NCBI RefSeq assembly: GCF_964204645.1
Contig: NC_134026.1
Coordinates: 21,734,150 to 21,798,149 of the forward strand
Direction: 5' to 3'
Source of the DNA: Tubulanus polymorphus
Lineage: Eukaryota; Animalia; Nemertea
DNA length: 64,000 nt
A model generated the notes under the pieces. That model was not told where the DNA came from. It saw nothing but the letters and a program-made list of their open reading frames with translations, and ran no database searches. The translations under genes and the position numbers were made by a program. Each line of letters begins with the position of its first letter. Positions within the stretch are counted from its first letter, which is position 1. Shown piece after piece: positions 23,461-49,368 of the stretch.

Positions 23461-24596
23461 GAAGCCCATCATTTGAAACAAAACTTAAACCTGGACAGAA
23501 GGCTGGGCGAATGGTCCCTTTTACTGCCTCCAAGGAAAAAAAGGCACATCTCCTAAAAAAAGAAACTTCAATACCAAAATCATTTTCCAAAATCACTTTT
23601 TTTGGGTGGGTGCTTGTGTGGGTGGATGTTTGGGTGGGTGTGGTTGAATGGGTGGGTGGTTGGGTGGATGGATGGATGGATGGATAGATAGAAAATTATA
23701 GATAAAAATTCTGCGCTTGCCACCTATTTCGATGGGTAAACTGATTAATTATGATAAATGTGCGCTATTTATACGGTATTTTGATTGGTTTTATCACTCA
23801 TTAGGAAAATGGACTACGATATTTAGTCTTATCTTGCGAATTTCCACCTATAGTCTTTGTTGCTCGAATAAACGTGGCAATCAGCTGAAAATAACGAATC
23901 AAGAATAGATTTCTTTTTATTACGTTCTCAGGGTAGATGATTTGATGTTCGAGAAACGCAAGAAACCCCCAATTACCGCCACGCGACCAACTGTCATTTA
24001 GATGCGGTGATAAATCACTGAAATTAGTCTGTTTTGAGCTTCGGAAAACATTCAACAACAGAATTCAGCTCCACGTATGTTCGACGGTGAGCCTAGAGTT
24101 AAAATTATACCATTTCGATTAATCAAAATTACTCTAACTCAAATTTTTCCTCTCAATTCACCTCTCATTCAGTGTTATCAACGTTAGTTTTATGTCGATT
24201 TTTACAAGAAGCATAAATGTAAGAGGTCAGTTATTGTTCGTGATTGATGTTTCATGATCGCATGAATTACATAAAAATTATTAAGATACGAACGACGAAA
24301 TATCGAGAGAAATATTCGTTCTGGCAAATTTAATGTAAGCTTATATGAAAGAAACACACCCAGGAAATGGAATACTAGCGTAAGTGATCTGATATAGAAT
24401 TGATTCGTACAGCATCTGAATTAGATTAAGTATTTGGAAATGTTTTGATTGCTTAGAGCGCAACTATGACGCGCGAACCGACTGTTATTTACATCACCAA
24501 CCGCTTTATCTAACGCACATCATTTGAGAAAAAGCGATGACAACGCATTCGTCGATTTGATTTTTCTACTTCACGGACGTATTTTCTACCGGCTTA

Positions 24597-27500
24597 ATGA
24601 AAATGATGATGATGAGTTTCGTAGCCTTACAAATATCATTATACACAATAATCGCTTTGAATTCGAAAAGAACTGATGCCGCTTTTGAGATTCCCAATTT
24701 GGACGATAAACACTTTGAAGTTGACGGAGATTTAGTTTTGGGCGTTTTATCGTGGATCCATTACAGCGACGAGAGAAACGGATGCTCCGAGAAAGCGTTT
24801 TTACCAACGGGAATCGCGTGGACTGAAATGTTTAAATTTGTCGTAAATGAAATAAACAATAATGCCACGATTTTACCAAATATAACGCTGGGATTGGACA
24901 TCTACGATGAATGTATGAGTACCCGAATCGCTGCCGGTCGAGCAATGCAACTACTGCACCGAGCTGGAACATTTCAGGATACCGCTTCAAATTTTATGTC
25001 ACGAAAGCACCTCGTCGGGGTTATTGGGGGTGTTTTTTCGTCAACGGCTGTCGCCATATCCAGGATCTTCACTCCGTTTGAACTACCGCAGTTAAGTATG
25101 TCGGCGACTTCGGCCGAACTCGATTCTCGATTTTATTTCCCGTATTTTCTACGCTTACCGCCGTCAGATGCCGCACAGACGATCGTCATCGTAGATCTCA
25201 TTCGATATTTTGGTTGGAAATATTTTGCAATTCTCTATCGCGACGACAGTTACGGAATCAACGCCATGCAGATGATCGTGCATCTTACGCGAAAATTACC
25301 GGCCGTTTGTGTCGCTTATAGTAAAGCAATAAGCGACGACAACATCGCAGAAGACACGAGGACGATTGTAAAACAATTAATCAAAGACGGAAGAGTCCGA
25401 GTCGTCGTTACATTTCTATATTCGACGGCCGCATCTGGTTTATTAAGAGCTGTTAATGACATAACAAAGACGAACTATTTCACTTTTATATTTAGCGATT
25501 CAATCGAACCGGCAGCGTTGGATGCCTTTGGAAATTCGCTCGGCGCATTACGTATAGGCGTAGAGTTTCAGTTTAAAGCCGAAGATTATTTCTTTGACAT
25601 CTACGAGAAATACACATACAAAAATCTGTCGACGAATAATCCTTGGAAACACCTGTATATGGAGCGAATTTTTAACTGCACGTGGGTACCATCAAAATTA
25701 TCAATGTGTCAGCAATTCGTGGACACACCGTTTATCAAAAGTCTAATGGGACGGTCGGTGTTCTTTACTTACAGTAGGGCACATGATACAGTTTTGACTT
25801 ACGCAATGGCCTTACATAAACTGATTGAAACGAAATGTCCAGATCTTTTTTCACATTTCAATAAAACGCTAGCAAAAATGTGCGTCACGACTAAACATTT
25901 GTTACCGTACCTATACAATGTTTCATTCGACGGCAAAACAGGTCACATTTTCTTTAATGATATAGGTAACGGAATGAAGCCTTATAACATAGACCAATGG
26001 CAGTTTACTGAAGGAAAATTTAAACTGGTTGAAATCGGAAATTATGACCTATCCACCAAAATGGTATCAATCAACAAACGCTTGGTAATGTGGTATAATT
26101 ACACGCGAAAAGGAACTGGTGGAAAGTTTTTGGTGATTCCCTCGAAAACACCGAAGTCGACGTGCAGCGACCCGTGCAAGCCAATCGAATACGTTCAAAC
26201 ATTGGAGTCAAAATGCTGCTGGGAATGCAATAGATGCCGGAACAACGAATACATCGACATGCACATCACGAAAGGAAACCCGTGCATAGCATGTCCGCTG
26301 TACATGTGGCCCAACCCTGATGACTCCAGGAGCTGCAGAAAACTATCTCCGCAATATCTAAACGTGGAGCACCCGATTGGAATCGGTTTGTGCTTCGCGG
26401 CTGTTGTTGGTATGATAATAACTTGTCTGGTGACAGGTATCTTGGTCAAATACCGCCGAAACCGACTGGTGAAAGCGTGCAGCCTGGCACTTAGTGTATG
26501 CACTTTAATGGGAATTCTCTCTAGTTTTCTGGTGGTGTGTTTACTGATGATAAGACCGGAACGATTTGTATGTTGGCTGCATCGGTTCGGTTTTGCCATC
26601 TCGTACACGGTCGTTTATACCCCTCTTCTGGTAAAGAGTACGCGCATGTATCGCATCTTTTGGGCTGGTAAACGCGGTATCTCGAAACTGAAATATATCA
26701 GCAACTTGTCACAAATGATCGTCACATCTATTGTATTAATACTGCAAGTAAGTAATCTCCACAATGCGCATTCTAGTTCAAATAGAATTAGCTAAGTTTT
26801 ATATAGAATGATTTCTAAAGCGAGACACTTTTGAATTACCAGGAAAAGGTTTAGATATCTTAAGCAATAATTGTGATTTGCGTGTAATTCAATAGGACTT
26901 CGAGGTATGAGTAATTGGAAAAGTAGGCTTTCAGATCAGAGGTCGAGAGGTCGAGACACCACTCATCACCACAAGTAATTTTTTTTCCTAATAAATGGGG
27001 GAGAATGAACACCAACCAGAAAACAATAATGTTAATGAAAATCAATATTATTGCCAATATTGTAAAAAATACATCGATAAATCCCAAAAATCACGACATG
27101 AAAAAACTGCAAATCATATAAAAAATGTAATAGATTTTGAAACACTAGATAATACAAATGAAAGAAAAGAACGATTAGATGATATGAATGTGGATGAAAT
27201 AAAATGTGAAGTTTGTGATGAATTTATAACAAAAAGGAATTATAATAGACATCTCGAAACAGCAAAACACCATCAAAATTTGAGTAATTATGTTTTAGGA
27301 AAAGATTATTTTGATGATAAACCTCAAAAAGTAAAAAAAAACAACTTCAAAAACTAAATCCATTTCAAATAAACCTTACATGGAAAATGTTAGAAATTAT
27401 ATTGATTCACTAGAAATAAAAGATACAATTGAAATTTTAGAAACATTACATAGTAAAATTGGTCCTGCAGCTATTATATTTAGATTTTTCAAAGGTACAA

Positions 27501-30500
27501 CAATAGAAGATTATAGTACATTTAATGAAATAATAGAAAAAATACTAGATTTGATAACAGATGTTGAATATCCAAAAATTAGTATCTCTGGGAAAGTAAG
27601 TTTTATGAAGTCAGAAGAAAAAATGGATTATAATATTCAAACACTCTCTGAAGAAATAATTTCAAAAACGCAAATAAAAGAGAAGTTAGAAAAAATATTT
27701 AATGAATTTAAACGTCATATTGAAGAAAGATATTTTGAGGGTTCTGGCTTAACATTGAATGAAATTATATATTTAGATTTAAATGTTTATAATACAAAAA
27801 GAAATAAAACATCAAAAAGTAATAAAATGTTTAAAAATGATTCAAACTTTACAACAGAAAAGGATATTAAAGCATCATCTTATATTAAATTACCATTTAC
27901 AACAAAAGCAGTAATAAATATTCAAAATGAAGATAATAAATGTTTTCTATGGTCAATTATTAGTTGCTTACATCCAACACAGGAAAATGTTTGTAGAATA
28001 ACATATTACCGGAAATATGAAACATTATATAAAATTGATCAATATCCAATAACTGTAAAAATGATTCCTAAAATAGAAATAGTTAATAATTTAAAAATAA
28101 ATGTATTCGAATTAATGCAATTACCAAAGACAAAAGGTGAAAATATTAAAGATTATACATTGGAAGCTTTATATTTAACAGAATATTATGATGATGAAAA
28201 TGCTATAGATTTGTTATATTATAAAAAAGATGAAAATGAACATTATATGTCGTTAAAACAAATTGATTTATTCTTTAGAACAGAAAGTGATCACCATAAT
28301 AAAATTTATCTATGTAGAAAATGTTTATCTAAATTTATGACTGAGAATACATTATTAAAACATAAAGAATTATGTGATAATAAAGATTTTTGTAAATTAA
28401 TAATGCCAACAGAAAAAGATTATAAATTGAAATTTACTAATCATAAATTTAAGAATATTGTTCCATTTGTAATTTATGGGGATTTTGAATCGTTGAATAA
28501 AGAATTAACTGATCAAGATAGAAAAGAAATATATAACAAAAAGCAATTATTAAAATCAATGGATAAAGGAAATGAATTAAATGAAGACACAATACAAGAC
28601 CCACCAATTCTAAATACAATCAAAAAAGTTCATCAAAGAGCTGCTGCTTATGGAATTTATATAAAATCAAATTATCCTGAATTATATGAAAGTCAATATA
28701 TTTCTTTTAGAGGTGAAGATGTAGTTAATGATTTTTGTAACAAAATGATTGAATTAGAAAGTGATTTTGCAAAATTATTAAACAAAAATGAAAGAATAGT
28801 TATGACAAAAGAAGATGAAATTGATTTTAATTATGCAACTCATTGTTGTTATTGTGAAAAACGTTTTTATTCATTTGATAAAAAAGTTAGAGATCATGAT
28901 CATTTAAATTCAAAATATCGTGGAGCTGCTCATGAAGATTGTAATTTACAAGCTAAAAAAGTAAATTTCGTTCCAATATTATTTCATAATTTATCAGGCT
29001 ATGATACCCATCTATTTATAAAACAATTATCGGGAAAATTGGGTGCATTTAATCAAGAAATAGAAGAATATAATGCTATGAATGATGTAAATGTAAGAAA
29101 ATATGATTTTAAACTATTAGCTAAAACATCTGAAAATTATATTTCATTTCAATTTGGTTGCATTAGATTTTTAGATTCTTATAGATTTCAAGTTCATTAG
29201 ACAATTTATCAAAAAGTTTAGTTGATAATGATTTTATAATAACTCGATATTATTATCAAAATGAACAAGATTTTAAATTATTGAGATATAAAGGTGCAAT
29301 TCCTTATTCATTTTATAAAACACACAATGATTTTAATGTAACAGAATTATTAAAAGATCAATTTTATGATCAATCAAAAGAGGAGTATGTGAAAGATGAA
29401 GTGTTTAATAGAACATTAAATATTTGGAACCATTTTAAGATGAAAAATCATGGTGAATTAGTTGATTTATATTTAAAATCAGATGTTATGATATTGGCTG
29501 ACATATTTGAAAAATTTAGAGAAGTTAATTTGAATCATTTTAATGTTGATCCTTGTTATTGCTACTCTAGTCCTGGTTTACCCTGGCAATGTGGTTTAAA
29601 ATATACAAATGTAGAATTAGATTTATTAAAAGAACCAGACATGGTTTTATTATTTGAAAAATCAATTAGAGGTGGAATTAGTGGTGTTATGGGAGATTGG
29701 TATTTTAAAGCAAATGATGAATATAAATTATTATATATTGACGCCAATAATTTATATGGGCAATGATGCAACCTCAACCACATAAAAATTTTATATTAAC
29801 AGAAGTTGAAAATGATGATAAAACTGATTGGGAAAGCGCAATTATGAGTTTAAAAGATGAAGCACCAATTGGTTATTTCTTTGTAGTTGATTTAGAATAT
29901 CCTGAAAATATAAAGTTTAAAACAAGAAACTTACCTTATTGCCCAGAACATTTAACTGTAGATGATAGTTATTTAAGTGAATACCAGAAGAAAATAAAAC
30001 CGAAAGATCATGTTTTACAGAAAAATTAATACTTACTCAAAATAATAAATACAATTATATCGTTCATTATAGAATGTTAAAATTTTATCTAAAACAAGGA
30101 ATGAAATTAAAGAAAGTACATAGATATATTGAATTTAATCAATCGAAGTGGTTAGAAAAATATTCTAATTTAACATCCATTTAACTGTGGATTTCCATTA
30201 ATAGCCAAAAATACGGACAGTTACATACTAAAAATCAAGACAAATGACATAACAAAAGACTTAAAAACATTAAAACATCATTTTGATTTTAGCAATTATC
30301 CCAAAGATCACGAACTATTTAGTAATGATAATAAAAAGATTCCTGGTAAATTTAAAGATGAATTAGGGGGTGATGAAATGATTGAAATTGTTGGGATAAG
30401 AAGTAAAATGTATAGTTATAGAACAAAAGATCATGAAGCTAAAAAGTTAAAAGGAATAACAAAACATGTGGTTGATAAACATATAGAATTTCAAGATTAT

Positions 30501-33500
30501 ATAAAGTGTTTATATAAATCAATTGTAATGAAACATAAAATGAATTGTTTAAAATCAGAAGATCATGAGATGTACATTAATGAAGTTGAAAAAACTAGTT
30601 TGAATCCATTTGATGATAAAAGGCATATTTCAGATGATGGTATAAAAACATTACCTTATGGCCATTAATCATTAATATTTCTATGAAATTGTTTCATTAT
30701 GAATAAATCATTATCTTCTGAATCATTAACTTCTGAATCATCATCTTCTAATTCTTCATCTTCTAAAAGTTCTATATTTTGTTCATTAATACATTCAATT
30801 AAATATCTATAACTTTCAATCATTAGATGTTCTTCATTTTCATCTGATTGTTTTTCTATAATTTCTTCAGGTTCTTCCATTTCATTTTTCTCATTTAAAT
30901 AACGTGTTATATTGTTCCACATTTCATCTCGCTCTCTTTGTTTCTTTTTGTTTGTTAATTCATCAAATTGAATTATAATATCTATGTTTAAATAATTTAC
31001 AATCTAATTTAAAAAGAATTCATAATTAATTGAATCTGTTATTCTATTTTCCAAATGATACATTAATATTTGTTTGAATATTTTTTTTATATTTTCCATA
31101 TCTTCTTCTGTTAATTTAGGTTTTTCATAATAACCATTAAATAATAAATATAAATACATTTTCTTTTGTTTTGTGTTAAATGTTGATGGAATAATTGTTT
31201 TTATAATATCTTTTTTAGTTATTTCACCATTTTTATTTTCTATCATTTTCATTTTTTCAAGCCATTGCATATATTCTGGTGTATGATCTTCTATAGAAAA
31301 TATTTTAAAAATTTCATCTAGATAATTTAATTTTGGTTCTATGAGAAAATCTCTAGTTTTTTCTTCACCCCATAAATTCCTTAGCTATTCACAATCAACA
31401 CAAAATTGCACAGGACCTTCTTGTCTTAAGGTCGCATAATAACATTGTGGGCATTTTTGTTTATAATTTCTTGGTAATAGATCTTCATTAAGCTCTTGGT
31501 ATTTACTTACGTTTTCTTTATGTTTTATTGTTCTATTATGTAGATTTGAATTACTTGCTGTAATAATCAATTTACAATATTTACAATAATATGTTTTTCT
31601 TGTTAATTCATTATATTGTTTTTCTAACTTTTCAACTGTTTCTTTATTATCTGGTCACGTTTTCTCATATTTCATTTTTTCTAATATTTTATTTTTTCTT
31701 TCATTGAATTCTTCTTCAAATTTATTAGAAATTTTATCCATATGTGCTTTACGAAATTGATGTTTCTCCCAATCTTCTATATTTTCAGGTCTATATTTTA
31801 TTCGACATTGCTCACAGAGATAATCTTTTATATTATCCTTATCATAGAATAAGAAAGGTCTTTTCCAAATAACTTCAGATTCAACTTCAACAGAATTACT
31901 ATTACTTTCATTACTATCAACATTAGCCGTTGCGCCATTAATTTTACACTTCTCTGAATGTTTTTTAACATAATTTCTTGAGAATAATTTATTACATTTT
32001 GGGCAGTTTAGTTTAGGGGGTTTATAATTTTCTTCATGTTTTTTCATATGTCGAGCCATATTACTTTTTCTTAGAAGTTCACCACTAATTTCACATGCTA
32101 TCTTCTCATCCATTTATTAGGGAAAAAAATTACTTGTGGTGATGAGTGGTAATTTTTTTTATGTTATAAATAATGGTAGAATTAAAAGAATACAGAATAT
32201 TTGTTGATTCTAGAAGACTTACAAATTATAAATCACATAATTTACTAGTTCAATTAGATAGAGAATTTAAGAATTGTGTTGATTTGAAATTAGTAGATAT
32301 AAGTTTATGTAACTCATTTTACAATATATCAGATAAAACTGATGAACATAGAAGCCTTTTTATTTTTGATAAACTTGGTAGTAAAATGTTTCAACTTATG
32401 ATTACACCAGGATTATATAATTTAGAAACATTAGCGCAAGAAATTAATAGAAAAGCTCGGATTGGATTAGGTAATGGTGATTCTAAATTTAATATTAAAT
32501 TCATAAAAAGTGAGAGCTCTAATAAAATTAAAGTAAAGTTTGATGATGAAAATATTAATCATAATGAAGAAGTGAATATTGCTTCATTTTCAAGAAGACA
32601 TGCTTACATGGTAAAAAAAAACCTTTTGCTAAACTGTTAGGAATTCCTCCAGATAAGCTTATTGTTGGAAACATATACGGTATATCAAATTTAATACCTT
32701 TTACACATTTTTATATTTATTGCAATTTAATTGATCCTACAAAAACATTTGAAGCAACTAAAAATATAACTTGTAATTCTAGTATACTAAATATTTTACC
32801 ATTAAAAATGTTAAACAATTTGGAACGCAAATAAATTATAATTTAGCTGAATGTGATTTTAAACCTTGTATTCCACATATCAATAATTTTAAATTAGAAA
32901 TAAGAAATCATAATGGTTATTCAATTGATTTGAATAACATTCCTGTGATATATGAATTAGTTATAAGATGTAGAGAGTAATTTTTTTATTATATAAATGA
33001 ATATAACTGTTGGACCGAGTATATGTTTTGGATTTGATTTTAAACGTGAGAAAGAAATGAAATTTAACATTAATGATGTAATTACACATATCAAAAATAT
33101 TGCATTTTCTAATGAAACAACATTTGAGTATGAAACAACAATAGATAAAGAAACTTTAAATGTAGAAAAGATTACTAATTTAATTAGAGAATCTTTAAGA
33201 TTTTATGAATTAGATGACGATTTTATCATTATTTCTAAAATGGAAAATACATTTAATACATATGAAGTTACTTTTACTCGAGATGAATATAATATATATA
33301 AAGTAAAATCTAATATGAAATATTGGCAGAATCAATTAAATTTTGCTGTTCATTGTGCAACAACTGGTTGTGGTGTAAGTTGGCATGAACACTTGAAAAA
33401 TTTGAAATATTCTGATTTAAAATTCATTCATACAATATTTAGATTTCACACATATTTTCAAATCAGAATAATATTAAATGAATTAGAATGCCCTTTACCT

Positions 33501-36500
33501 GGATCGAAATATTTTAAAGAATTGGATAATAATATTAATCTATCTATGTTTTATAATATGTAATGAATTTAATATAAATATTAATTCCGATTTTAGAGCG
33601 CATGGTAGATTACATGGTGTTGGTGAACAGTATGAAATAAAAAGAATTGATTATCTGCATAGAATTGGAGCTTATCATAATTATAGAATTGATAATAATA
33701 ATGGATGGATTAATTTTATTGAATCTTATAGTGAAGGATTTACAAAACCTGGTATACAAAGAATAAATCAATCAATTAGAACTTATTTGATATGTATTTT
33801 AGGTGCGCAAGTTGAAACAAGATCACCAATAGTTGGAAATAATAGTACTTCATTTGATGCGCAGAAACAATTTAAAATATTATTTGAAGATTCCATTCAT
33901 AATGATAAAAATAGATCGATTCCAGAAAACATTGTAAGATATCAAAATTATTTAGATAAATCTCATGTAAGACTAAATTATTGTATAGGTCCTAATCTAT
34001 TAATTATTTCTAATGATTTAGTATTAAAGATGGGAAATATAATTGGTTATAATAATCTAATTAAAACTGCAACAATAAATAATTCAATTGGATTAAATGA
34101 TATAAATAAAAAGATTATTACTACTCCAAAATTAATGGAAGGTGAAAAAAATATTCAATCAACAGAAACTAAAACTAAAAATATTAAATTGCATAATGAT
34201 TCTAAAATAAAAGATTACAATACATCAGAAAATATAAAAACTGATAATATTCAACATGATATAATTAAAACTGATAATGATAATAAATTCCATGAAAATA
34301 CTAAATTAGCTTTAACTTGTATAGGAATTGTTATAGGAGGAATATTATATTTTAAATTTTAATTTTTTTATTATATAAATGGATGTAGAAGGTGGAGAAG
34401 ATATTGGAATGGATAATTTTGATGAGCCTGGCATAACTGAAGAACAACAACCTGATTTTAGTGAAACAAGTTTTAATGATGGTAATGAGCCAGAATATAA
34501 TAATAATTTAAATATGCCTGATTATATTAAAAATGCAGAATCACAATTAAATCCTGAAAATTTAGACCCAGATTTAGTAAAACAAGATTTAGATAATTTA
34601 AACACAATACCTAAATTAAAACATATAATTGAAAATTCTGAATTTAACATAAATGATGAAGACGTTGGACCTTTAGCATATAAATTAAAATTTTTAGATA
34701 ATGGTAAATGGTATTATCATTTGAAAGGTGATTATTATATTGATATCACTTATAAAAATCAAAACAAAATATTAGCAGAATCAACTTTAGAAAAATTAGA
34801 ACCAGGTAGAATTAAAAGAATTAGTAATAGTAATGGTAATGTAATAACTGATGTTATAAAACAAGAATTAACTGTTAATGATATAGACGTGTTTAAACAA
34901 AGAATTAATGAGTTATTTGACAAAATCAAAAAGAACTCAGAAACAGATACAACTTCTGAACAGAATAAACTTCCAAAACTAGTAAACTTAAATCAAATAA
35001 AGTTCTAATTGAAAAACTTTTACCGAATGGATTAAATGATGCAACAGATCAAGAATTAGAAGATTTAAATAATATATTTTCTGTTGAAGCAATTATAGAA
35101 ATTAAAAGTATAAGACTTGCATCTGATAAAATTGCGCATGATAAAAGTATAAGAGATTTTAAAATTAGAACTTTAGAAAAAGAATTAACTGATAAAAATA
35201 AAGAAATAGAACAATTAAAGTCTGATTTAGATCATCAAGTAATTGATGAAATAGAATATAGGCAAAAAAAATTACGTTTAGAAAAAGAAAAAGATGATTT
35301 AGAATATAACATAGAATTACAAAAAGAAGTAATTAAATTATTATTAAAATCATATGATTATAATATTAATAGATTAAAAGTTATTTTTAAAGATTTATTT
35401 ATAAAACCAAATTCTGAAATATCATTGAAAGATAGAATAAAGTTATTATTTAAATTAGAAGGAATAACAATTCTTTCAATTCTAACAGCTGTAACTATGT
35501 TATTTACAACAATTGGTTTAGCAATATCAAATTCTTTGAAATCTACTCCTACTCCCAATAAACCGGATAAACCCCCGAATGATAATAATTCTATACAAGA
35601 TAAAGTTAAGGATGGTTTAAAGAAATTAGCAAAATATTTATGGGAACTATCTAAAAAATCTGCTGCAGCTTTACCAGGAATTATTGCATCAATTGTTGGT
35701 TTTATATTGAAATCTGCTTGGAATATTCTTAACTTTGCTGCTGAACATATTATTTTATTTTTAATTACAGTTGTAAGTGCTATCATTTTTGGGTTAGTGA
35801 ATATGATATCAAAAAGATATCAAGAAAAAATAATAAAAAATAAATAATTAATTTTTTTGTTAAATAAATGAGTGGGAGTTATATAAGTCCTTCTAAGATT
35901 TCTAGAATATCTAAGGCTATTAAAGCAGAAAGATCACATCATATAATTACACATAATCCTTCAAATATTAATCCCAATGAAACTTTATATGTTAGAATTC
36001 CTAGATTAACACAAAATACTTTTTATGTTCCAAATAGTATTTATTTATCAGCTGATATAAAAGTAACTGGTCATGATAATAATTATGTTGTTGATAATGT
36101 TGGGAGATATTTGATTAAAAAATTAACTATAAAGATTGGTCCAGAAACAGTTTTCTCATTAGATGATTATAATTTATTTATGCATTATAAAGATTTATGG
36201 TTAACTAAAGAAAATAGAAAAAATATGATATTTCAAGACATTCAATCGGAAAACCATAATAAATTAAGATCAGGAGCTAATGACGCAATAGTAACTCGTA
36301 CCGCAGATAATTTGATAAAAAAGATTTATGGAAGTAAATATCAAATTCCATTAGATTTTGAATTGATAAGTAATAATGCACCTTTATATAAATATGTAAT
36401 TCAAGAAGATATTATGTTTGAAATAACATTTGCTCCTGTAAATGAAATTGTATTGTCTAGAAATTGTATTTGTTAAAGACATGGGTTATAAATTATCGAA

Positions 36501-39500
36501 TATATGTTTAGAATATGACACAATAACTAATGAAAATATTGCTAGCACAATTCAAACTCAATACAATCAAGGATTTTCATTATTATATGATTATATTGAT
36601 AAATTTAAAACTGTAACTATTAATGCAAATGATGAAATAATGAGAATATTAACTTCCCAAGAAGATCTATTAAAGGTATATTAATATTTTTACTATTGCA
36701 ACATATTCTAATGGTGTAATAAAAGTAGATAATTATTATAATCCTGAAATAACAAAAGTAGAAATAACTATCGAAGGTATAGCAAATAAAATATTTTGTC
36801 AGGGAATGAGAATGATAGATCAGTGGCCAGAAATAAGAAAACATTTTATGAATGAAAAAGTAAAATCATTTGAAAATTGTAATATTAATCAAATTGATTA
36901 TTATACCGGCATGCATTATGGTTAGATTTTAGAACAACAGAGGATAATTCATTACATGGTTCTGGAAAAAAATTACAAAACACTAAAGATGGAATACAAT
37001 TATTCATGACAAAGAAAAAAGGAAGCCTAAATTTCAAAATGCATATTTATATTATATCTGACGCACAATTAAATATTGTAAATTCACAATTAGATAGTAT
37101 TCAATATAAATAATACTTTTAAATGGATTGATGTTTTACCAAAATTGATAGAAGGATATAATAATTCTTATCATTCTTCTATTGGAATGAAACCTACTGA
37201 TGCTAGAAAACCTGAAAATGCTGAAATTGTTTGGAATAATTTATATGGAGCATTTCTTGTCGATGATTTTGGTGAACCTAAATTTAAAGTTGGTCAAAAT
37301 GTTAGAATTTCTAAGTATAAAAAGATATTTGACAAGGGATACGATCGAAATTTTACTAGGGAAATATATAAAATAAAAAAGGTAATAACAACAAAACCAT
37401 ATGTCTATAAATTAGAAGATTTAGATGGTGAAGAAGTTGATGGGTATTTTTATGAAGAAGAATTGAGTTTAACTACTGAAAATCTAGAACAAGAATATAA
37501 AATTGAAAAAGTATTAAAAACAAAAACTATTAAAAGAAAAAAATATTCTTTAGTAAAATGGGTTGGATGGCCAGATAAATTCAATGAATGGATATTATCA
37601 AGTAAAATTAAAAATATATGAATGAATAAGGAATTATTTATATTTGAGCCTCATAATATGTTAATTTCTGGTGTAACAAATTGTGGAAAAACTTATTTTA
37701 TGTTAAATTTATTAGAGACTTTTTATAAAAACTATTTTGATAATATAGTATTATTTTGTCCAACATATGAATTTAATCAAACTTATGATAGAAATATTAC
37801 TAGAAATAGTAAATTTATTACATTAGATCCTAAAACAGTAAAAGAAAATTTAGATAATTGTATTAAAATAGCAATAGATATTTATAAAGGATCAAATACA
37901 TTATTCATTATAGATGATTGCGCAAATTTACATGATTCAAAAGTGAGAGAAAGTGAGTTATGTTACTTAGCTTTTTCTGGGAGACATTTTGGGATAACAA
38001 CTTGGGTTTTAAATCAAAAATATAATTCAATTGTTAAAGATTTTAGAGAAAACATTAGATTTTTAGTTTTATTCTACAATAAAGATAGAAAATCGATGAA
38101 AAATGCACTTGAGGAAAATGATATTATTCCACATGATTTACATAATGAATATATGGATAAGTTGAAAAATATTAAAAGATCAAAATTACTATTTAGATTA
38201 CAACACCCATTTAGATATGAATTTATTTAAATTCAACTGGCTTGTTAATCTAGTATATTTTTAGTTACATTCTAGTTGAATTCTAGTTATTAGTAGTTGG
38301 AACAAAAATCAACTAGATTTAACAATATTTCAACTAGCTTGTTAATCTAGTTTAATTCTAGTTACATTCTAGTTGAATTCTAGTTGTAAGTAGTTGGAAC
38401 AAAAATCAACTAGATTTAACAAGAAATAAACAAAAACAACAATATTTCAACTAGCTTGTTAATCTAGTTGAATTCTAGTTACATTCTAGTTGAATTCTGG
38501 TTGCAACAACAAAACTAACTTATTTGTTATATAAATGGTAGGTGAAAAGAAAATAAAATCTAAAAATGGTGATGTTCCAATTGAAAAAACTTTAGATGAT
38601 TTAGGAATAACAGAAACAAAATTAACTCCAGATGATGGTGCTTTGAATAATGTAACAACAAATAATAATTATGAATATTATCTTTATTGTAAACATCAAT
38701 TAGAAATATTAATAGCATCTGGAAAATGTAAAAATTTTATTGGTAAAAATTTAACTTATAATGAATTAGATACAATGAAATCAGATGAAATTATTAGATT
38801 ATTTAAGATTTATGAAACCGCGAGAACAGCTAGAATTAATGACGCGATATCAGAAAATGTAGTGAAAGGTTATAGTAAATTATGTAATTATATGCTGCCA
38901 ATTCAAGATGAAAATAGATTATATGCTGATTTAGAAAATGATTATTTAGTTATGACTGAATTAAATAAATGGATTGGAGATTTATCATTTCAATTAGGTG
39001 GATTTATGACATTATTATCAACTGGAATTATAACATTTTCAAATATTGAAAGTAAAAATATTTCTATAATAAATGAACAAGGTGGAAGAAGTGAAGAAAA
39101 ATCCGAGATCACAGAAACAAAATGAATGGTCTCGACAATTAGGAATTAAATCACAAGAATTTAAAAAAGCTAAAAAAGAAGGAATAAATAATGAAAATTT
39201 TAATAATAGTGAAAATATTGTTAGTTCTACTCCTTCTGGTAATAGAATATTTGATAAATATTTATATTTTACAGTTGGATTTGTAATTGTATTCATTTTG
39301 ATTGGGTGTAATTGGTATAAGAAATCAAATAAAATTCATGATATTAATAATTCTGAAACAACTGCTATCAAAAATGAAAATAAATCTGAAATTCCAAAAT
39401 TGACAATAAAAAAATGGATTAATATTTTAGAAAAAAAGCAAAAAAAATCATGTTTTTAATCAATTGAATATTAATTGAATATCTCACTACTTTTGTTAAT

Positions 39501-42500
39501 CTATACGGAGCAATTAAATTGTCCAGATAAGTCATTTCGGATTCTAGATATTCATTATTTTTATTAATTTATTTTTTTAAATTTAATCAACAATTTCTAA
39601 ATCATGATGGCCATCTTCATTTTTTCCATGATAGATTATTTTAATCCTTCTAAATCTTTTAATTCCTCTATACTCAATGAAACCCATTTATCAGGTAAAA
39701 ATACTTTAAATTCTCGCGATGTACTAACATTGCAGTAGCTTAAATTAGCTGATACTTTCTCTCCATATTTAGTTTTTATCTTTTCTAATTTCAATATTTT
39801 ATGTTCAATTTCTTTTGTAACATCAACTAACTTTTTTATTTCAAATTGTTTTTTTTGTTGGTTTTATTCTGTTATTTATTGTTGCTAAGAATCTCCCATT
39901 TATAAGGAAAACAAATTATTTGTGGTGATGAGTGGGGATTACTTCCCCTTGTATAAACAAGCACGCTATTAACCGTTCTCACCCAAGCCTCACGGCATCT
40001 ATTTATCGGGGCACAGTCGAAGTTTTAAGAAATTTGGGGAATTATGAGATTTGGCGATTGGGTAGATGATACAGTCTTCGACTGGTCTAATTTAAAAAAA
40101 ATTGTCAACTTGTGACCGACTTCGATTCACTTTTGCCTCTAAGCTGGTCTGCAACTTCATTGCCTCCATGGTTGAAGAAAGAGCTCTTCTGATGTCTGCT
40201 TCATCATGAGCATATCGTGTAGCCAGCCGGCCCGGTCCCGGGGCCCGGTTTGGCTGTCACTCGATATCCTAGACTTGAGTCTGGGTTGAAGTAGACATTG
40301 TCATTTAAATAACTTATTCATGTTATTCTGTATGAATTACCCGTGTGTCTTGTATTTTGTATTTTCTTAGTTTAAAATTTGTAACTTTATTGAATTTTAT
40401 CCCGGAATTTCAATGAAATAAGGATCAATAAAGTATTGAATTGAATTGTCACCTTATACACATGCCATCAGTGGACGCGGAGCCGTATATGACAGCTATG
40501 CTATTATAAATTGCTAATCTCATGAAACCTGCATACCCCTAATATCGAACATATTTTCTAAAACATTTGAATATTATATGTTTACACGTTTTTATATAGA
40601 CCGCTTGTAGCCGCCGATGAAATTCACACCGGCCCTACTCAGATCGTAGATAGCTTCGTCATTCCACTAGCATCCCCATGACAGGGTCTGACTTTTATAT
40701 CAGACTTCCAAATCGTGTATACATCCGCCATTTAACCGAATAATCCGATTTACTTATCATTTCTTTTTATGCCTGCCGCTCCTGATATAATCATACATCA
40801 TTTACTATTACAATACGTCTTCTCATGATATTCAATGCAATATAACATTCCGACGTTCAAATGGAGGTCATTATATAATCACAGGGAGCCATTCTACATC
40901 TTTATCAATAATATTTTGCCAAATAGCTTGTATGTGTACACATAAACCTGTGACGTTTTGCACATCGATTTACGGTTGTCGTTTGTAAAATGACGCTGAA
41001 TGGTTAGCATTGTTAAGGTTTCATAATGGTAACGTTTTATAAGGCGTCAAAAAAATTACTTGTGGTGATGAGTGGTGTCTCGACCTCTCGACCTCTGATC
41101 TGAAAGCCTACTTTTCCAATTACTGGTATGATTATGTTATATAAGTATGTACATTATCACTTATGACAGATAAGCGTAAATTACTGTTTCATTTAATACG
41201 CTTACAGTGTACTCTCACTAATCAGACTCATCAATTTGTAGTGGATTATGCCATTTATAAGAGTTGTGTACCCTCTACAATCCACCCAGGATCCCCCTGC
41301 CAAAATGTTTTTTGATAGTGTGAGGGACATTGTGATCGAATGTATCTTATTTTGATTATTGACTGAATTTCTTCAGTTTTTAATCAAGTTTTTCCTTTGG
41401 TATATGTTAATCCAACCGATCCATCATTTCACAAACCTTGGATAACTCCTTGTATTGTCACAGCAATTAAAACAAAAAACAGCCTCTATAGGAAACTTGT
41501 TCGAACTCGTTCTGATAAAATAAAAACCAAGTATAATTCGTACCAAAATCTCATTTAAAAGCTTATTAACAAAGCTGAATCTGATTATTATTCTGAAAAG
41601 TTACTTGCTGCTGGAAATGATATGAAGAAAAAGTGGAATCTGTTGAACACAATTTTAGGGAAACACTCATTCAAAACTACCAAACTCCTTTACCTCCGAT
41701 CAACGTATAGCACCCTGACATTTCCGCCTTGCAAGTATAGCACCCTGAGATTTCCGCCTCGCAAGCCCAGGGTAACTACGTAAAAAATCCTTAAGTCGAC
41801 GATCAGGAAGCAACGACGAGAAAGCGTTCTTAAAACTTCAAACTCAAACTTAACTTAAATTTCACTTTATTTTCTTGGATATATCGGAGAGACGAGGCTG
41901 GACATCCAACCCGCTCAAAAGCTACAACTCGAATCTCTGATTTCTTTCAACAAATTTTCCACCAGGATACTATTACATAAGACACCAAGGGTGGCAGAGA
42001 CCAGAAGGCAGTTATCAAAACAATACAAACTGACTGACACTTCAAGTACATTTCTAAAACAAACAAACAGTCCGACACTCCAAAACTGATTGCCATCCTG
42101 CCCCCTTAGTAACATCGATGAAAATAAGACAATATTTGTAAAATAAGAAATAGAATTCATAACTTGACCTAAAAATGCTCTGTTAATTTAGACTAAATTT
42201 AGTTAAATATCTACGGTGTTATATTCTCCCATTGCATCTCCTTCAACTTTTGCATGTAATGCAAAAGTTGAGTACATTATGTAAAAATACATTCTTATTG
42301 GTATATCATTATAAACTGATGATTAATAGAATATGTATAAAATGCTCTGGGTTTGCAATTTAACTTATTTGAGTTACAATTAGAATACAATGAACAAACA
42401 CATTTACGTTGTTTGAGGAAATTAACTATGGTAGAAGCAGTAAAGATGTATTTCATAATATGATATATATGATTTTGCTTTCTAGATTATTCCTTAAAAA

Positions 42501-45500
42501 TTAACAATACAATCATTTTAAAAGGGTAGGGTTACCAGTCGTCCCTGTAGCACGGAATGACTATAAGTTATTAAAAAGGTTTTTTTTGTAGATGAAATGT
42601 ACTAAACCCACCACCATTGATGAATGATATATATATGCTAATATGGTTACATTATGCTAAAATGGAATATCTATGAATACAAATACTTAAAGAAGACACA
42701 AAACGTTCAGATCAATTACGTGACAATACCAAAACAATGAAATTACATAAATGACACATAGTCTATCCTAGGTTTTAAAATAAATCATTCTTCTCTTCTT
42801 ATGTGATGCAGAAAGGGAATCAGCAGACGTTTACTGAATAATCCTTTTATTTCGATCATTACGTATATACTTTTATTTTTACCGCAACTCTTGTGTATAT
42901 ATTCATATCATTAAATTTAACTTCCTATCAATCCCACATATTTTAATATTCATATAATTCTCTTTTTATCTGCTGTGACATACAGCTAGTCTAATCTTAC
43001 ATTGTCATTCTTTTTCCAATCGATCTCAATTAACATTAATCATGCTCGTAGACGTGTACTAAGCAATTAATAGTTAGTTTTCATACATATGATATTGGCA
43101 AATAAATTCAACTATGTACTAAATAATTTCTTCATTGTGCTAGCGGAGGTGAGCAAAACACAATAACTCCACTAAATACATTTATTTTCTATAGCCGTTT
43201 TGAGCGTCTTTTCTTCGATTTTCTGACGCTTTCAGACGGTAGGCGCGCTGTCCCAGAATCTGTACTGTTGGGACAGAGATTTAAACTGCTCATGATCTGC
43301 ATCGAGCGATAAACTTGTTGTTCGAGTGCAGGAATACGAACGCACATTCCTGTGTATTTCTTTTCGAGCTCTTGGTTTTCGAATTTTAGCCGGTTATTTT
43401 CTGTGATCGTATTTCGAATAAAATTTTCCTTTTTGGCTGTTTGCGAATTTGAAGTTTCTAACCACGGCGCAACGTTTAAAACGGTATTTTCAATGGTGCA
43501 CTGAGAACTGGCATCACATAAAGTCTTTTCAAATGGCAATAAATCGCATTGAATGCAAATATCCTTTATCCGAAACTTCGAGTTGAGTTTGAACGCTTAC
43601 GTCTCGGAGCCATGGATCCTCAAGCGCATCATGCCAAAAGTCTGACGGTTGATCACGATTTGTTGATGATATCTGACACGATTGTTCCGAATTTCGATAT
43701 TCAACAGATTTCAGTTTTTCATTCGTGACACGAAGCTGATTTTCCAAGCTATGAATTTTCTGTTCTAACTGGCTGACTTCAAAACGCGATTCTTTCCAAC
43801 GATTGTAATTGTCCATACGTATTTTGTCCCGATTTCGTTGTTTTTCGGATTTCCGACGAATAAATCTTGTTTCTCTTCTGGGAAATTTTGAGAATTGAAC
43901 TGGACAAAATCTAGCGTAATGTCCGATTCCAGAACAAAGATCACACACAATTTTGATTGATTTACCGTAACAGTGCGCATCAGTTCGATGTCCTTTTTGC
44001 CTCCATTCCGGATGTGAATTCCAACGTATTGTCATCTTGAAGCTGGGGAACTTAGCGACAGATAGTTCAGCACTCACTTTAGCTCGAGGACAGATACCTA
44101 GGTTTTTCTTTATCGTGCCCGGGTTCTCCACCAATTATAGCACCCTGACATTTCCGCCTTGCAAGTATAGCACCCTGAGATTTTCGCCTCGCAAGCCCAG
44201 GGTAACTACGTAAAAAATCCTTAAGTCGACGATCAGGAAGCAACGACGAGAATGCGTTCTTAAAACTTCAAACTCAAACTTAACTTAAATTTCACTTTAT
44301 TTTCTTGGATATATCGGAGAGACGAGGCTGGACATCCAACCCGCTCAAAAGCTACAACTCGAATCTCTGATTTCTTCCAACAAATTTTCTACCAGGATAC
44401 TATTACATAAGACACCAAGGGTGGCAGAGACCAGAAGGCAGTTATCAAAACAATACAAACTGACTGACACTTCAAGTACATTTCTAAAACAAACAAACAG
44501 TCCGACACTCCAAAACTGATTGTCATCCTGCCCCCTTAGTAACATCGATGAAAATAAGACAATATTTGTAAAATAAGAAATAGAATTCATAACTTGACCT
44601 AAAAATGCTCTGTTAATTTAGACTAAATTTAGTTAAATATCTACGGTGTTATAAATGCATTCTTCCTGGTGATACAAATATTGCCAACGAGTTCAACAAT
44701 TTTTTTTAAATATTGGTGAAAAGCTTGCTAGTCAAATCCCCGATACAGGGCAATCTTTTCATCAATATATGAATAATCGTGTCAATGAAAATATCTTTTT
44801 TTCTCCCTACCTCGCCCAATGAAATAAGTGATGTTTTTTCGGGTCTTCCCTCAAAAAAGAGTGCCGGTGTTGATGGTTTTAGTATTTTTATCATTAAACA
44901 AGTAATTGATACCGTTAAGTTCCCTCTATCCCACATCTTTAACCGTAGTCCTCAGACGGGAATAGTCCCCAACGATCTCAAAATTGCTAAAGTTTGTCCT
45001 TTGTTTAAATCAGGAGCCCCTTATTCTTCTGATAATTACCACCCGATTTCTTTGCTTCCTAGCTTCTCAAAAATTCTGGAAAAATTGGTTTACAACAGAT
45101 TAGTTTCATTTTATAACAAACAGGATATTGTAATCCCCAACCAGTTTGGTTTTCGTCCTAAGCATTCAATTGCTTTGGCACTAACCAAGGTCGTTGACAA
45201 TCTTACTGAAGCCCTAGAAAAGAAAGTTATTTCTATAGGATTATTCTTGGACCTTTCGAAGGCATTCGATACTGTTAACCATTCAATGTTGCTAAAGAAA
45301 CTCGAGTTTTATGGTATCCGGGGGGTTTGTCATGATTGGTTCAAAAGTTATTTGACTGATAGGAGTCAAGTAGTTAGTTATGATAATACTACATCATCCC
45401 CATTAAAGGTACTAATTGGTGTATCGCAGGGTTCCATTTTAATTACTCCTTATTTTATACATGAACGGTTGCGTTAATGCATCCAAGTTACTCCAATTTA

Positions 45501-46571
45501 ATCTTTTTGCCGATGATACCAATTGTTTTTATAGCCATACAAATATTAATGAATTGGTTTCTACATTAAATTCAGAACTAGTAAAACTTGGTATCTGGTT
45601 TCAAGTGAACAAACTTTCTTTAAACATTAAGAAATGTCACTTCATGATTTTTGGTAATGCAAATCACTTCAATTTTCCCATTCGCTTAAATGGTGAATTA
45701 ATCAAACATGTTCACAGTACAAATTTCTTAGGTCTTTTCATAGATGATAAATTAAATTGGGATGTCCATATCAAAAATATTTGTTGTAAGGTTACACGCT
45801 CCATTGGAATTCTGAATAGATTTAAAAAACATTTCCCATCATATCTCCTTATTACCCTTTATTATAGTTTTGCTTATCCTAATTTACAATATTGTAATTT
45901 AATCTGGAGTAGTAACTATGCAAATAAGCTTAATGCACTCTTTTTATTACAAAAAAGGGCAATAAGAATAATTAATAAGTCCCATTATCGTGAACACACA
46001 GATCCTATCCTCTCCTTATTACCCTTTATTATAGTTTTGCTTATCCTCATTTACAATATTGTAATTTAATCTGGAGTAGTAACTATGCAAATAAGCTTAA
46101 TGCACTCATTTTATTACAAAAAAGGGCAATAAGAATAATTAATAAGTCCCATTATCGTGAACACACAGATCCTATCTTCACGAAATTAAACATTCTCAAA
46201 TTGAAACATATTACCAAATTTCAACTCAGTGTATTCATGTTCAAATTCAATAACTCACAATTGCCAAATTCTTTCAACCATTATTATCAAAGGAATATAG
46301 ATATACACTCGCTATAACTCGCTATTCAACTAGAAACAATAATTTTTTCCCTATTGCTAGATTCAGGACCAACAATACTCAATTTTCTGTAAAAATCTCT
46401 GGTCCTGTTGCTTGGAACCATTTGCCAAAAAGTCTGAAAAATCTTTCGTGCATCCATATTTTCAAGATAAAACTTAAATTGTATCTCATGAATTTGTGAT
46501 TCTGAATTATCCAAGTTAATTTTAATGCTTTTGTATCTGTCATCTGTTACCAGAGTGTAAGAATGTATGTA

Positions 46572-47731: not shown

Positions 47732-49368
47732 ATCGCACGTACGACCTAGGTGTGCGAAATTGAACTGACTCCCGTGGCTATGGTGGCTGATTCAGCCCAT
47801 AATTGAAAATACAGATCTATGCAAATCTATATGAACCTCTGTATACGGCTAAAGACATGATAAACGATTTTTTACATTTTGGTTTTCTCTCGCGAGCATT
47901 CGAAAAGTCGGTTTTTTTCGCACGAGAAAACAAAAGATTGGCCAATGCAATGTAAAAGATTTCTTATCTAGCTTCAGCCGTTTAGAAAAATTGTTCAAAC
48001 CAAAGCGTTTTGTATTTTTGTGCGATAGAACAAAAAGTTTGGAAAGCAAAAGGTGGGTCAATGTAAACATTTGTTATCGTGCCTCTATAGCTGTACAGAA
48101 CAATTTCCTAGTAAGGCCCAAATCAGCCACCATACGCAAGAGCACACTGAAAACCAACGAACTATCATTTGGTATAGATGATAACTCGATTTTATTTTAG
48201 AATCTATTTGTTGGTAAACTCATGGTCTTAGGCCTACACTATCACAATACAAATGCAGTTAATATATTGTAAAACGTACCCAAAGATCGATGTAAATGTT
48301 TATGCAATTGCATTTGTCAGTGATAATTTTGAAATTACCGCCTCGTAGATGGAGGGGACATCGAATAATGTGTGTACAGAACTTTAATATTGGACATATT
48401 GTTTCAAATGACCTTATAAAAATGAAACCGTAAAAACGAGTTTGCTATCTTCGTTGTTTGTCTCCTCTTCATTATATGCTGATGCCGTTTTGTGACGTAG
48501 TCTTATGGAGTTCATATGTACATGTATAACAGTAATATTTGTAACTTGATATTAGTAACTTGAATGCGCTTAGATGTAATGTTCGTATGAAATAATAACT
48601 AATAAATGTACTTACTGGATGTTTCAGTTTTGCAATGTATCGAACAGTGGACATCATTGATGATTTAAATATGTGTTGTGTTTGTAGCGTAAATCAGCAT
48701 TTTGTGATGTATCTTTTGAATAAAGTATGAATATGGTGATGCATGAACAGGTAAGTTTATCGTACCTTTTTTGGAGCGCGCATTTCCATTACTATGGCAA
48801 CGAATCGTGTAGTATCATAGAAAATAGTCAATGCCGACAATTAAACAAAATTATTTAAATCGTGCCTGTTTTTTAGAATTAATCTATCCAATGGAAATCA
48901 TGGGCAACGTTGGAAATCTAGCCGCATGTGGAGACCGGATCATCCACCAAGGATAATTACTCGAGACCATATGGTGCCCGTGGAGAACAAGCAACAGAAC
49001 CGGACGCATGTACAAATGCAGTTTAAGGAGAAAAGGGTGATGATTTTGTTGACCGGGGGGGGGGGGGGGCTAATCGGGATGTTGATTTTGCTATTTGCAT
49101 TATTCCATCGTAGATACTTAAATCCCGCACCCAAGCTTAAAACAAATATACAATCAATTTTGATTAAGCAATGGAATGCCAGTAGAGACAATCTAACCAC
49201 CGCGTATAGAATTTATTACTTTGACGACTTATTTTCACTGCTGAAAGCGCATTACCGCTGCAAAGCGAGCTGTTATTACGCACATCATTTCAGATAAAGC
49301 GATGACAACGTATTGTCGATTTGAATTTTCTTCTTTACCACAAATTTTCTACCGACTTCTTGAAAATC

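Follow-up and report, generated by a model that had tools for sequence, protein, structure and literature searches.

The question raised by the locus studied here is what kind of virus leaves, in an animal genome, a Polinton-like element with short terminal inverted repeats (TIRs), no protease recognised by Pfam and a poxvirus-like sequence at the starts of its genes, and what would transcribe such genes. The locus lies in a 64,000-nucleotide stretch of the nemertean Tubulanus polymorphus (NCBI RefSeq assembly GCF_964204645.1, contig NC_134026.1, positions 21,734,150 to 21,798,149), here called the window, and consists of a 14,227-bp insertion at window positions 26904-41130 with borders set by the TIRs and a target-site duplication (TSD). 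The element is almost certainly a decayed Polinton-like endogenous virus. The explanation towards which we lean slightly, judged from sequence, is that a multi-copy Polinton-like virus (PLV) left this decayed and non-autonomous copy in an intron of a G-protein-coupled receptor (GPCR) gene, and that the lineage likely parasitises, in the manner of a virophage, a poxvirus-like giant virus that is yet to be discovered.

The borders of the insertion are clear. The TIR arms are 76 nt long and 100% complementary, the tips of the element read 5'-AG...CT-3', and GGTATG stands on both sides, so the perfect 76-bp TIRs and 6-bp TSD reported in the initial annotation are confirmed. TIRs, a 6-bp TSD and 5'-AG..CT-3' tips are reportedly the canonical Maverick/Polinton values given by Kapitonov and Jurka in 2006, and the termini are of this type, with TIRs that are short at 76 bp. 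The outer 48 nt of the left TIR contain a direct GAGGTCGA GAGGTCGA repeat and its inner 28 nt are the onset of a promoter-like motif; the other longest inverted pairs in 16 kb (57 nt at 82% and 48 nt at 94%) are both internal copies of that motif. The intron of the second tandem GPCR paralogue serves as a proxy for the empty site. On the left, 26742-26907 is collinear with 51502-51675, and on the right, 41148-41182 is collinear with 51705-51737 in the same paralogous intron, so the whole TIR-to-TIR stretch is one insertion. The GC content is 0.225-0.242 across 28001-40000 compared with 0.33-0.42 elsewhere in the window, or 23-24% for the element and 37-39% for its flanks, and so strong a contrast with the flanks might suggest a misassembly or the joining of contaminant DNA to host sequence. 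Given the TSD, the collinearity of both flanks with the paralogous intron, and independent raw reads of the same species that show the family at many sites, this is hardly credible.

The evidence for a virophage-like lineage is found at the gene starts. The inner part of the TIR recurs twice inside the element, each copy directly upstream of a gene, and the common form of a gene start is a T-run, a spacer of about 6 bases and TAAATG with its ATG as the start codon. In the window, TAAATG stands at 8 of the 10 gene starts. Among metagenome contigs, a scan found 24 related loci, including L001 (11,483 bp, GC 0.17-0.22), in which the stretch from the penton-like gene to a gene for a transmembrane (TM) protein is syntenic with the window. 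In 13 relatives with GC of 0.20-0.44, TAAATG is at the start codon of 47 of the 56 open reading frames (ORFs) of at least 100 aa, against a background in the same loci in which TAA precedes only 2-9% of all ATGs (binomial 6e-40). The start-site consensus is AA.TTTTT at -18..-11, a spacer, then A.ATAAATGG. Seventeen of the 21 matches to the composite motif in L001, L003 and L008 fall on ORF starts, with 3 matches in 49.8 kb of host flank, and in divergent gene pairs the motif lies on either side of the short spacer. The promoter type varies by clade while the genes for the major capsid protein (MCP) and ATPase are retained: relatives L013, L014, L016, and L017, with 35-46% MCP identity, have TAAATG at none of 15 starts and carry TATA-rich motifs directly before the ATG. 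That TAAATG might be a stop-start overlap was considered and rejected, as the TAA is the stop codon of the preceding gene in just 2 of the 47 cases.

The poxvirus late (post-replicative) promoter, as set out by Davison and Moss in 1989, reportedly consists of a T-run and a short spacer followed by TAAAT(G) at the start codon. Because nearly every gene starts at such a poxvirus-late-like site, the lineage is likely a virophage-like parasite of a poxvirus-like virus. In the accessible part of one source, TAAATG at the start codon is described as a marker of poxvirus post-replicative genes, fish poxvirus included (PMC4542343), and in the accessible parts of two others most or all genes of a virophage are described as preceded by the late promoter of its giant virus (PMC6723459, PMC10945749). 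The counts given above place the genes of the lineage in a comparable way behind a motif of poxvirus late type, which points to a helper. Whether the lineage would be transcribed in the cytoplasm by a poxvirus-like helper, in the manner of a virophage, is about evenly balanced on the strength of the start-site motif, and the change of motif suggests that the sister clades may have changed helper. A literature search for TAAATG together with polintons or virophages turned up no paper that connects them, and in the main text of the paper on entomopoxvirus-associated PLVs, supplements excluded, the terms "promoter" and "TAAATG" have no occurrences (PMC11296320).

If no helper is assumed, then the element would be a dead copy of a self-sufficient nuclear virus or transposon of the Maverick type, and TAAATG would be its own signal for host or zinc-finger proteins. 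Its protein-primed family B DNA polymerase (pPolB), which is of the EndoVII-pPolB type known from animal genomes, the rve-chromodomain integrase of its relatives, the TIRs, the 6-bp TSD, and the many nuclear copies are all consistent with this account, and the strongest copies of the motif stand at two zinc-finger genes. RNA polymerase II, however, starts about 30 nt downstream of a TATA-like box, so such a box abutting the ATG cannot serve that ATG and is unfit for initiation by this enzyme. The motif also equals the poxvirus late form, T-run and spacer included; its type changes between clades while the genes stay, as expected with a change of helper; and the GC content is 14-20 points under that of the host. 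A purely nuclear life is thus possible and rather doubtful. The helper might instead be a cytoplasmic giant virus outside the poxvirus kin that converged on a late initiator of the TAAATG type. The fold neighbours of the MCP are capsids of nucleocytoplasmic large DNA viruses (NCLDVs) of many families, the sister clades have TATA-rich motifs, and we know of no marine invertebrate poxvirus, all of which would suit such a helper. To our knowledge, however, no viruses other than Poxviridae have the combination of T-run, spacer and TAAATG at the ATG as a hallmark. The accessible part of PMC4542343 points the same way, and convergence of this kind seems improbable.

The protease scans used Pfam hmmscan at E<=0.01. 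No peptidase family was matched by the 22 ORF pieces of the window element (of 23 proteins scanned), by the 16 ORFs of L001, by 18 ORFs of further relatives or by 5 pPolBs, nor was any matched even at E<=5 by 10 proteins, most of them of unknown function. The statement in the initial annotation that the element has no adenain-like ORF therefore holds as far as Pfam reaches, and the check that it proposed, for a protease in intact relatives, gave no match in the scanned ORFs of the metagenome relatives. Because the window supplies the TIR and pPolB side and L001 the rest, which together make a whole genome, the absence of adenain looks like a trait of the lineage, with the sequences leaning towards absence. 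A loss of adenain by mere deletion from the window copy of an otherwise ordinary Maverick/Polinton would be compatible with the at least three internal deletions of that copy, which show that gene loss does occur. The deleted regions are present in L001, however, where they hold the remainder of the p126-family gene, three small membrane-protein genes and the integrase, and no protease. The scans of L001, the other relatives and the pPolBs also argue against deletion, as does an MCP whose profile has no match among PDB sequences and which has no Pfam family above threshold. Mere deletion is accordingly quite unlikely. The accessible part of a preprint describes only one major PLV group with a protease as a core gene (10.64898/2026.06.19.733378). 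Since most PLV groups are without a core protease, a missing protease is by itself no strong argument for a new design of the virion. The proposal of a different life cycle gains support from the TAAATG start sites, and the absence of a protease is normal for PLVs in the wide sense.

Several points weigh against an adenain-less virophage of a poxvirus-like virus. No helper virus was seen, and no search for poxvirus-like genes was made in the runs. Both the motif and the genomes that carry it are AT-rich, and the motif could be a signal peculiar to the lineage, recognised by the host or by the element's own zinc-finger proteins. The element is integrated in nuclear DNA with its own polymerase and integrase, like self-sufficient Mavericks. 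The absence of adenain comes from hmmscan only, which divergent members can escape, and proteins of 206, 126, and 114 aa are without models; L001 lacks the pPolB end, and relatives on contigs of 14.3 and 16.9 kb lay outside the protease scan. Single breaks in the window copy could be assembly errors, as reads are not assignable to the locus. The entomopoxvirus-associated PLVs, which are the sole proposed poxvirus hyperparasites, all encode adenain according to the accessible part of PMC11296320.

Table 1. Features of the window, in window coordinates
Feature	Position	Strand	Remarks
Class-C GPCR paralogue pieces	24582-26762, 47198-47728, 49306-52298, 54859-57813		
Left TSD	26904..26909	.	GGTATG; one related hexamer at the matching place of the paralogous intron
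Left TIR	26910..26985	+	76 bp; starts 5'-AG
Promoter-like motif	26958..27005	+	ACCACTCATCACC.., T-run, TAAATG; repeated at 32150-32103 (-) and 39935-39879 (-)
Zinc-finger (zf-U1)-EndoVII-like-pPolB gene	26995..30668	+	Pfam zf-U1 3.2e-9, DNA_pol_B_2 5e-5; broken
Multi-zinc-finger protein gene	30665..32113	-	One frame of ~483 codons; zf-U1 4.7e-8; homologue of L001 zinc-finger protein
Candidate penton-like minor capsid gene	32173..32974	+	tblastn of L001 254-aa protein: 3 pieces in 3 frames
Chimeric TM-anchored gene	32997..34362	+	~20 codons p126-like, p442 family from ~residue 54
Coiled-coil protein with C-terminal TM segments (p485 family)	34379..35847	+	N-terminal 209 aa unlike L001
Double jelly-roll MCP gene (fold modelled)	35868..37110	+	tblastn with relatives; fold of 76%-identical relative
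Integrase remnant	37094..37621	+	Last 173 aa: end of rve core and chromodomain; Chromo 9.5e-5
A32-like packaging ATPase	37622..38230	+	Open frame, 202 aa; Pox_A32 5e-13 (above cut-off); 80% identical to L001
Tandem repeat array	38232..38503	.	97 bp x 2 and 11-mer CTAG-rich sub-repeat
p206-family helical protein	38535..39125	+	Open frame, 196 aa
p130-family small TM protein	39073..39459	+	Open, 128 aa
Small conserved gene (L001 114-aa family)	39586..39899	-	Own copy of the promoter-like motif at 39935-39879
Non-coding segment, 1.1 kb	39936..41048	.	GC ~0.21-0.56 per 100 nt (~40% overall); no ORF >65 aa
Right TIR	41049..41124	-	76 bp; ends CT-3'
Right TSD	41125..41130	.	GGTATG

The genes of the element are listed in Table 1, and their order is as first annotated, on the evidence of ORFs, Pfam and tblastn with intact relatives. 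The zinc-finger ORF at 26995 and the polymerase frames are a single gene, because intact pPolB relatives (1319-1365 aa, 60-61% identical) begin with the same two N-terminal zinc fingers, followed by the EndoVII-like motif and the polymerase. There are 244 homologues, many with PF03175 and PF02945, which makes the product a protein-primed family B polymerase; the named animal pPolBs, from three beetles and Hydra, are 29-31% identical to that of the window. The product of the penton-like gene has as Atlas structure neighbours proteins of about 250 aa from Nucleocytoviricota and Preplasmiviricota as well as DUF5901 (TM-score 0.73-0.82), and its Pfam match to DUF5901 (0.0015) is below the cut-off; its identity as a penton-like minor capsid protein is a lead and not proof. 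For the MCP, the model of the 76% identical relative (pLDDT 72, pTM 0.77) has Foldseek matches to PBCV-1 Vp54 (1.4e-13, TM-score 0.57) and, in BFVD, to NCLDV MCPs of many families down to 3.6e-16, so on this model the capsid protein is a double jelly roll. The MCP profile had 0 matches among the PDB sequences. The integrase of the window matches only residues 121-293 of the L001 integrase in tblastn; its assignment to the rve integrases comes through relatives, which have rve (1.5e-10) and Chromo (1.2e-6) and match the integrase core of prototype foamy virus in the PDB. In a PHROGs search of the element proteins, the ATPase was the sole match, and Rfam at the gathering threshold gave 0 matches in window positions 20000-48000.

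Two non-coding parts of the element can be described further. Between the ATPase and the next gene, both the window and L001 have an array with units of roughly 100 bp, and the window units are rich in CAACTAG/CTAGTTG half-sites. The L001 array, at the equivalent place (9088-9361), has 108 bp x 2.5 and a sequence unlike that of the window. A role as an origin, packaging or binding site is possible for this array. The 1.1-kb segment at 39936-41048, inside the right end, is bordered by two copies of the ..TTGTGGTGATGAGTGG motif.

The element was initially described as complete, which did not hold up. Compared with intact relatives, the window copy is broken by some 15 frame changes, by 3 in-frame stops and by 3 internal deletions, with the integrase core, membrane-protein genes and about 116 aa of pPolB lost. 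The polymerase gene has five frame changes, near 27330-27370, 29170-29190, 29757-29760, 29996-30014, and 30178-30210; when the intact 1363-aa relative P0162 is aligned to it by tblastn, the match runs through frames 1,2,1,3,2,3 with residues 1071-1186 unmatched, and the missing part of the polymerase falls between 30178 and 30210. The minus-strand zinc-finger gene has three in-frame stops (TGA, TAG, TAG). Further frame changes are found in the penton-like gene (2), the p442-family gene (1), the p485-family gene (1), the MCP gene (4), and the small minus-strand gene (2). Of the integrase, the N-terminal part and the catalytic core are gone. The fusion of the p126-like gene with p442 removes p75, p139, and p144, small membrane-protein genes that lie between the two in L001 and are conserved in other relatives, and in all the window copy is short of three to four small membrane-protein genes compared with intact relatives. 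No genes remain open other than those for the ATPase, the 196-aa helical protein and the 128-aa TM protein. Another genetic code was rejected as the source of the breaks, since frame changes cannot be cured by a code and the relatives are open under the standard code.

Raw Illumina reads with the same species label but from another sample and study (X6) were mapped to window positions 26000-39540. Read depth is 75-740 over the element compared with about 15-23 on the flank, which gives some 4-35 copy-equivalents at 90% identity or above. The 34,461 mapped reads comprise 1220 that are at least 99% alike, 14,095 at 95-99% and 19,146 at 90-95%. At the TIR tip, 503 family reads stop and continue into unlike flanks (agreement 0.35), as expected of many insertion sites. 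A second group of 490 X6 reads diverges 19 nt inside the TIR tip (26929 compared with 26910) into a related but different terminal sequence, which points to a subfamily with diverged tips. At nine break sites, the length of 40-83% of family reads is not that of the window copy; the rest have the state of the window copy and are far more than one locus would yield, which suggests that broken variants were themselves copied and fits mobilisation in trans. The 1.1-kb segment belongs to the family and not to this copy alone, because 274 family reads share its inner junction, connecting the promoter motif with sequence like the inner edge of 39936-41048. With that junction in family reads, and with no match elsewhere in the window or loci, a private nested insertion was rejected. 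Logan contigs from other runs of the species give a summed element/flank depth ratio of 130-1400 (X1) compared with the ~4-35 of the X6 raw reads; one explanation could be that this sample contained more free or amplified DNA of the element. In a marine metagenome run, short pieces 93-100% alike to the element were found, which hints at a marine habitat.

The initial annotation also expected that related elements would exist elsewhere as unannotated proteins and that the element belongs to a lineage distinct from canonical Mavericks, and both expectations were borne out. With the first capsid fragment as the query, 26 MCP homologues of 362-420 aa and 48-76% identity were found, all unnamed proteins, and homologues of p442 and pPolB were found as well; the longest contigs with MCP homologues, of 14.3 kb and 16.9 kb, are from ENA (clusters of P0007 and P0027). 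The syntenic relatives have accessory genes in common, including those for membrane proteins, of which the first reading of the element had already counted several. The genes of L001 are open except for the integrase, which is in two ORFs of 125 and 293 aa (rve and Chromo); in L003 and L008 it is one ORF of 359-362 aa. L001 also carries small membrane-protein genes and a deoxynucleoside kinase (10343-10981; dNK 1.7e-31) with deoxynucleoside and deoxycytidine kinases as its best PDB matches. Other loci have the same genes shuffled, together with BRO-N, VRR-NUC, and zinc-finger genes; in L017, for example, BRO-N is at 638-1462 (4.8e-25) and VRR-NUC at 160-606 (1e-5). In IMG/VR, an MCP relative was found in 0 of 67 stretches and a p442 relative in 0 of 157, and the ATPase scan returned 3 loci that are just 26-31% identical.

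For p442, 1321 homologues were found, on contigs ranging from 1 kb to 1.47 Mb, with the L001 member at 2996-4321. The family has a C-terminal TM anchor. It has no Pfam family, and an Atlas search with it gave no usable match. Its model (pLDDT 78.5) has a best Foldseek E of 1.2 in the PDB and a best VIA-align Z of 4.5, with none of 5 or above among 48161 chains, and its profile returned only chance rows from the PDB sequences (E 0.12 and 0.15). For a predicted structure, this lack of a PDB match does not show that the fold is new.

Several known systems resemble the element in part. Maverick/Polinton elements (Polintoviricetes; adintoviruses) share with it a pPolB with an EndoVII-like domain, an rve integrase with a chromodomain (in the relatives), a double jelly-roll MCP, an A32-like ATPase, TIRs, a 6-bp TSD and 5'-AG..CT-3' tips. 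Unlike them, the window lineage has no match to the adenain family, an MCP unrecognised at the Pfam threshold or by PDB profiles, an accessory set of the p442 and p485 families and small TM proteins, and, in the window element, 76-bp TIRs, a GC content of 20-24% and poxvirus-late-like start sites. Mavirus and the endogenous mavirus-like elements (EMALEs) of Cafeteria likewise have pPolB, an rve integrase, a double jelly-roll MCP, an ATPase and many integrated copies in the host genome, and their genes are preceded by the late promoter of a giant virus in the accessible parts of PMC6723459 and PMC10945749. Compared by description, the window lineage differs in having an animal host, a motif of poxvirus type and not of the type of Cafeteria roenbergensis virus, no protease match in Pfam and no known helper.

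The entomopoxvirus-associated PLVs (AHEV_PLV1/2, CBEV_PLV1, and Ca_PLV1), as far as the accessible part of PMC11296320 describes them, have genomes of about 12 kb and terminal repeats and are proposed poxvirus hyperparasites; two have pPolB and one is integrated in an animal genome. According to the same part of PMC11296320, all four have an adenain-type protease, an A32 ATPase and an L2-mu-like protein, three have a phospholipase A2 (PLA2) domain, and those with pPolB are without a detected rve integrase. The protease, the PLA2 domain and the missing integrase set them apart from the window lineage, by description only. PLVs in the sense of Yutin 2015 and of Bellas and Sommaruga 2021 share the core of MCP, penton-like protein and A32 ATPase, variable replication and integration genes, a protease that is usually non-core (in the accessible part of 10.64898/2026.06.19.733378), and an abundance of unnamed metagenome contigs. 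In contrast to these PLVs, the window lineage has the Polinton pair of pPolB and rve integrase and is endogenous in an animal; its MCP and p442 have no relative in IMG/VR, where the ATPases are only distantly related.

If the lineage is a virophage-like parasite of a poxvirus-like virus, then its life cycle may be pictured as follows. Integration would be carried out by the rve integrase of the family, probably supplied in trans to the window copy because that copy is without the catalytic core. Replication would be protein-primed, by pPolB. Transcription would take place in a cytoplasmic virus factory by the RNA polymerase of the helper, and the virion would be icosahedral with an internal membrane, its capsid maturing without an adenain of its own.

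The host gene can be read from the window as well. The insertion sits in a short intron of an animal class-C GPCR gene: the flanking ORF at 24597-26795 has ANF_receptor (4.6e-55), NCD3G, and the first half of 7tm_3 in Pfam. The window contains three tandem paralogues of this two-exon gene, with protein identity of 85-92%. Their introns are about 180-250 nt long, and the ~180-nt intron of the first copy has swollen to 20 kb through the virus copy and other insertions. Because its intron is so expanded, this first copy may be a pseudogene. The same intron contains a retroelement remnant at 44773-46069, in two adjoining frames with RVT_1 (1.3e-18, 3.7e-4).

Virophage biology and virophage-based defence are established in protists only, and for animals there is one proposal so far, the PLVs in entomopoxvirus occlusion bodies. 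The lineage described here joins the Polinton pair of pPolB and integrase to poxvirus-late-type starts on nearly every gene, and it is endogenous in an animal. A wider picture, offered tentatively since the chances are rather against it, is that animals carry, in tens of genomic copies, integrating virophages wired to the late transcription of an undiscovered poxvirus-like virus of marine invertebrates, that sister clades have been rewired to other giant viruses with starts of the TATA type, and that intact copies could be an inducible defence against giant viruses, as mavirus is in Cafeteria. With the lineage described here, the question of integrating animal virophages of poxvirus-like viruses would become directly testable, and the start-site motif is a sequence handle that predicts the kind of helper to look for. 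With p442, the virion module also gains a large protein family whose fold is unassigned. Through its conserved poxvirus-late-like start site, a dead transposon copy becomes a pointer to a possible animal virophage system.

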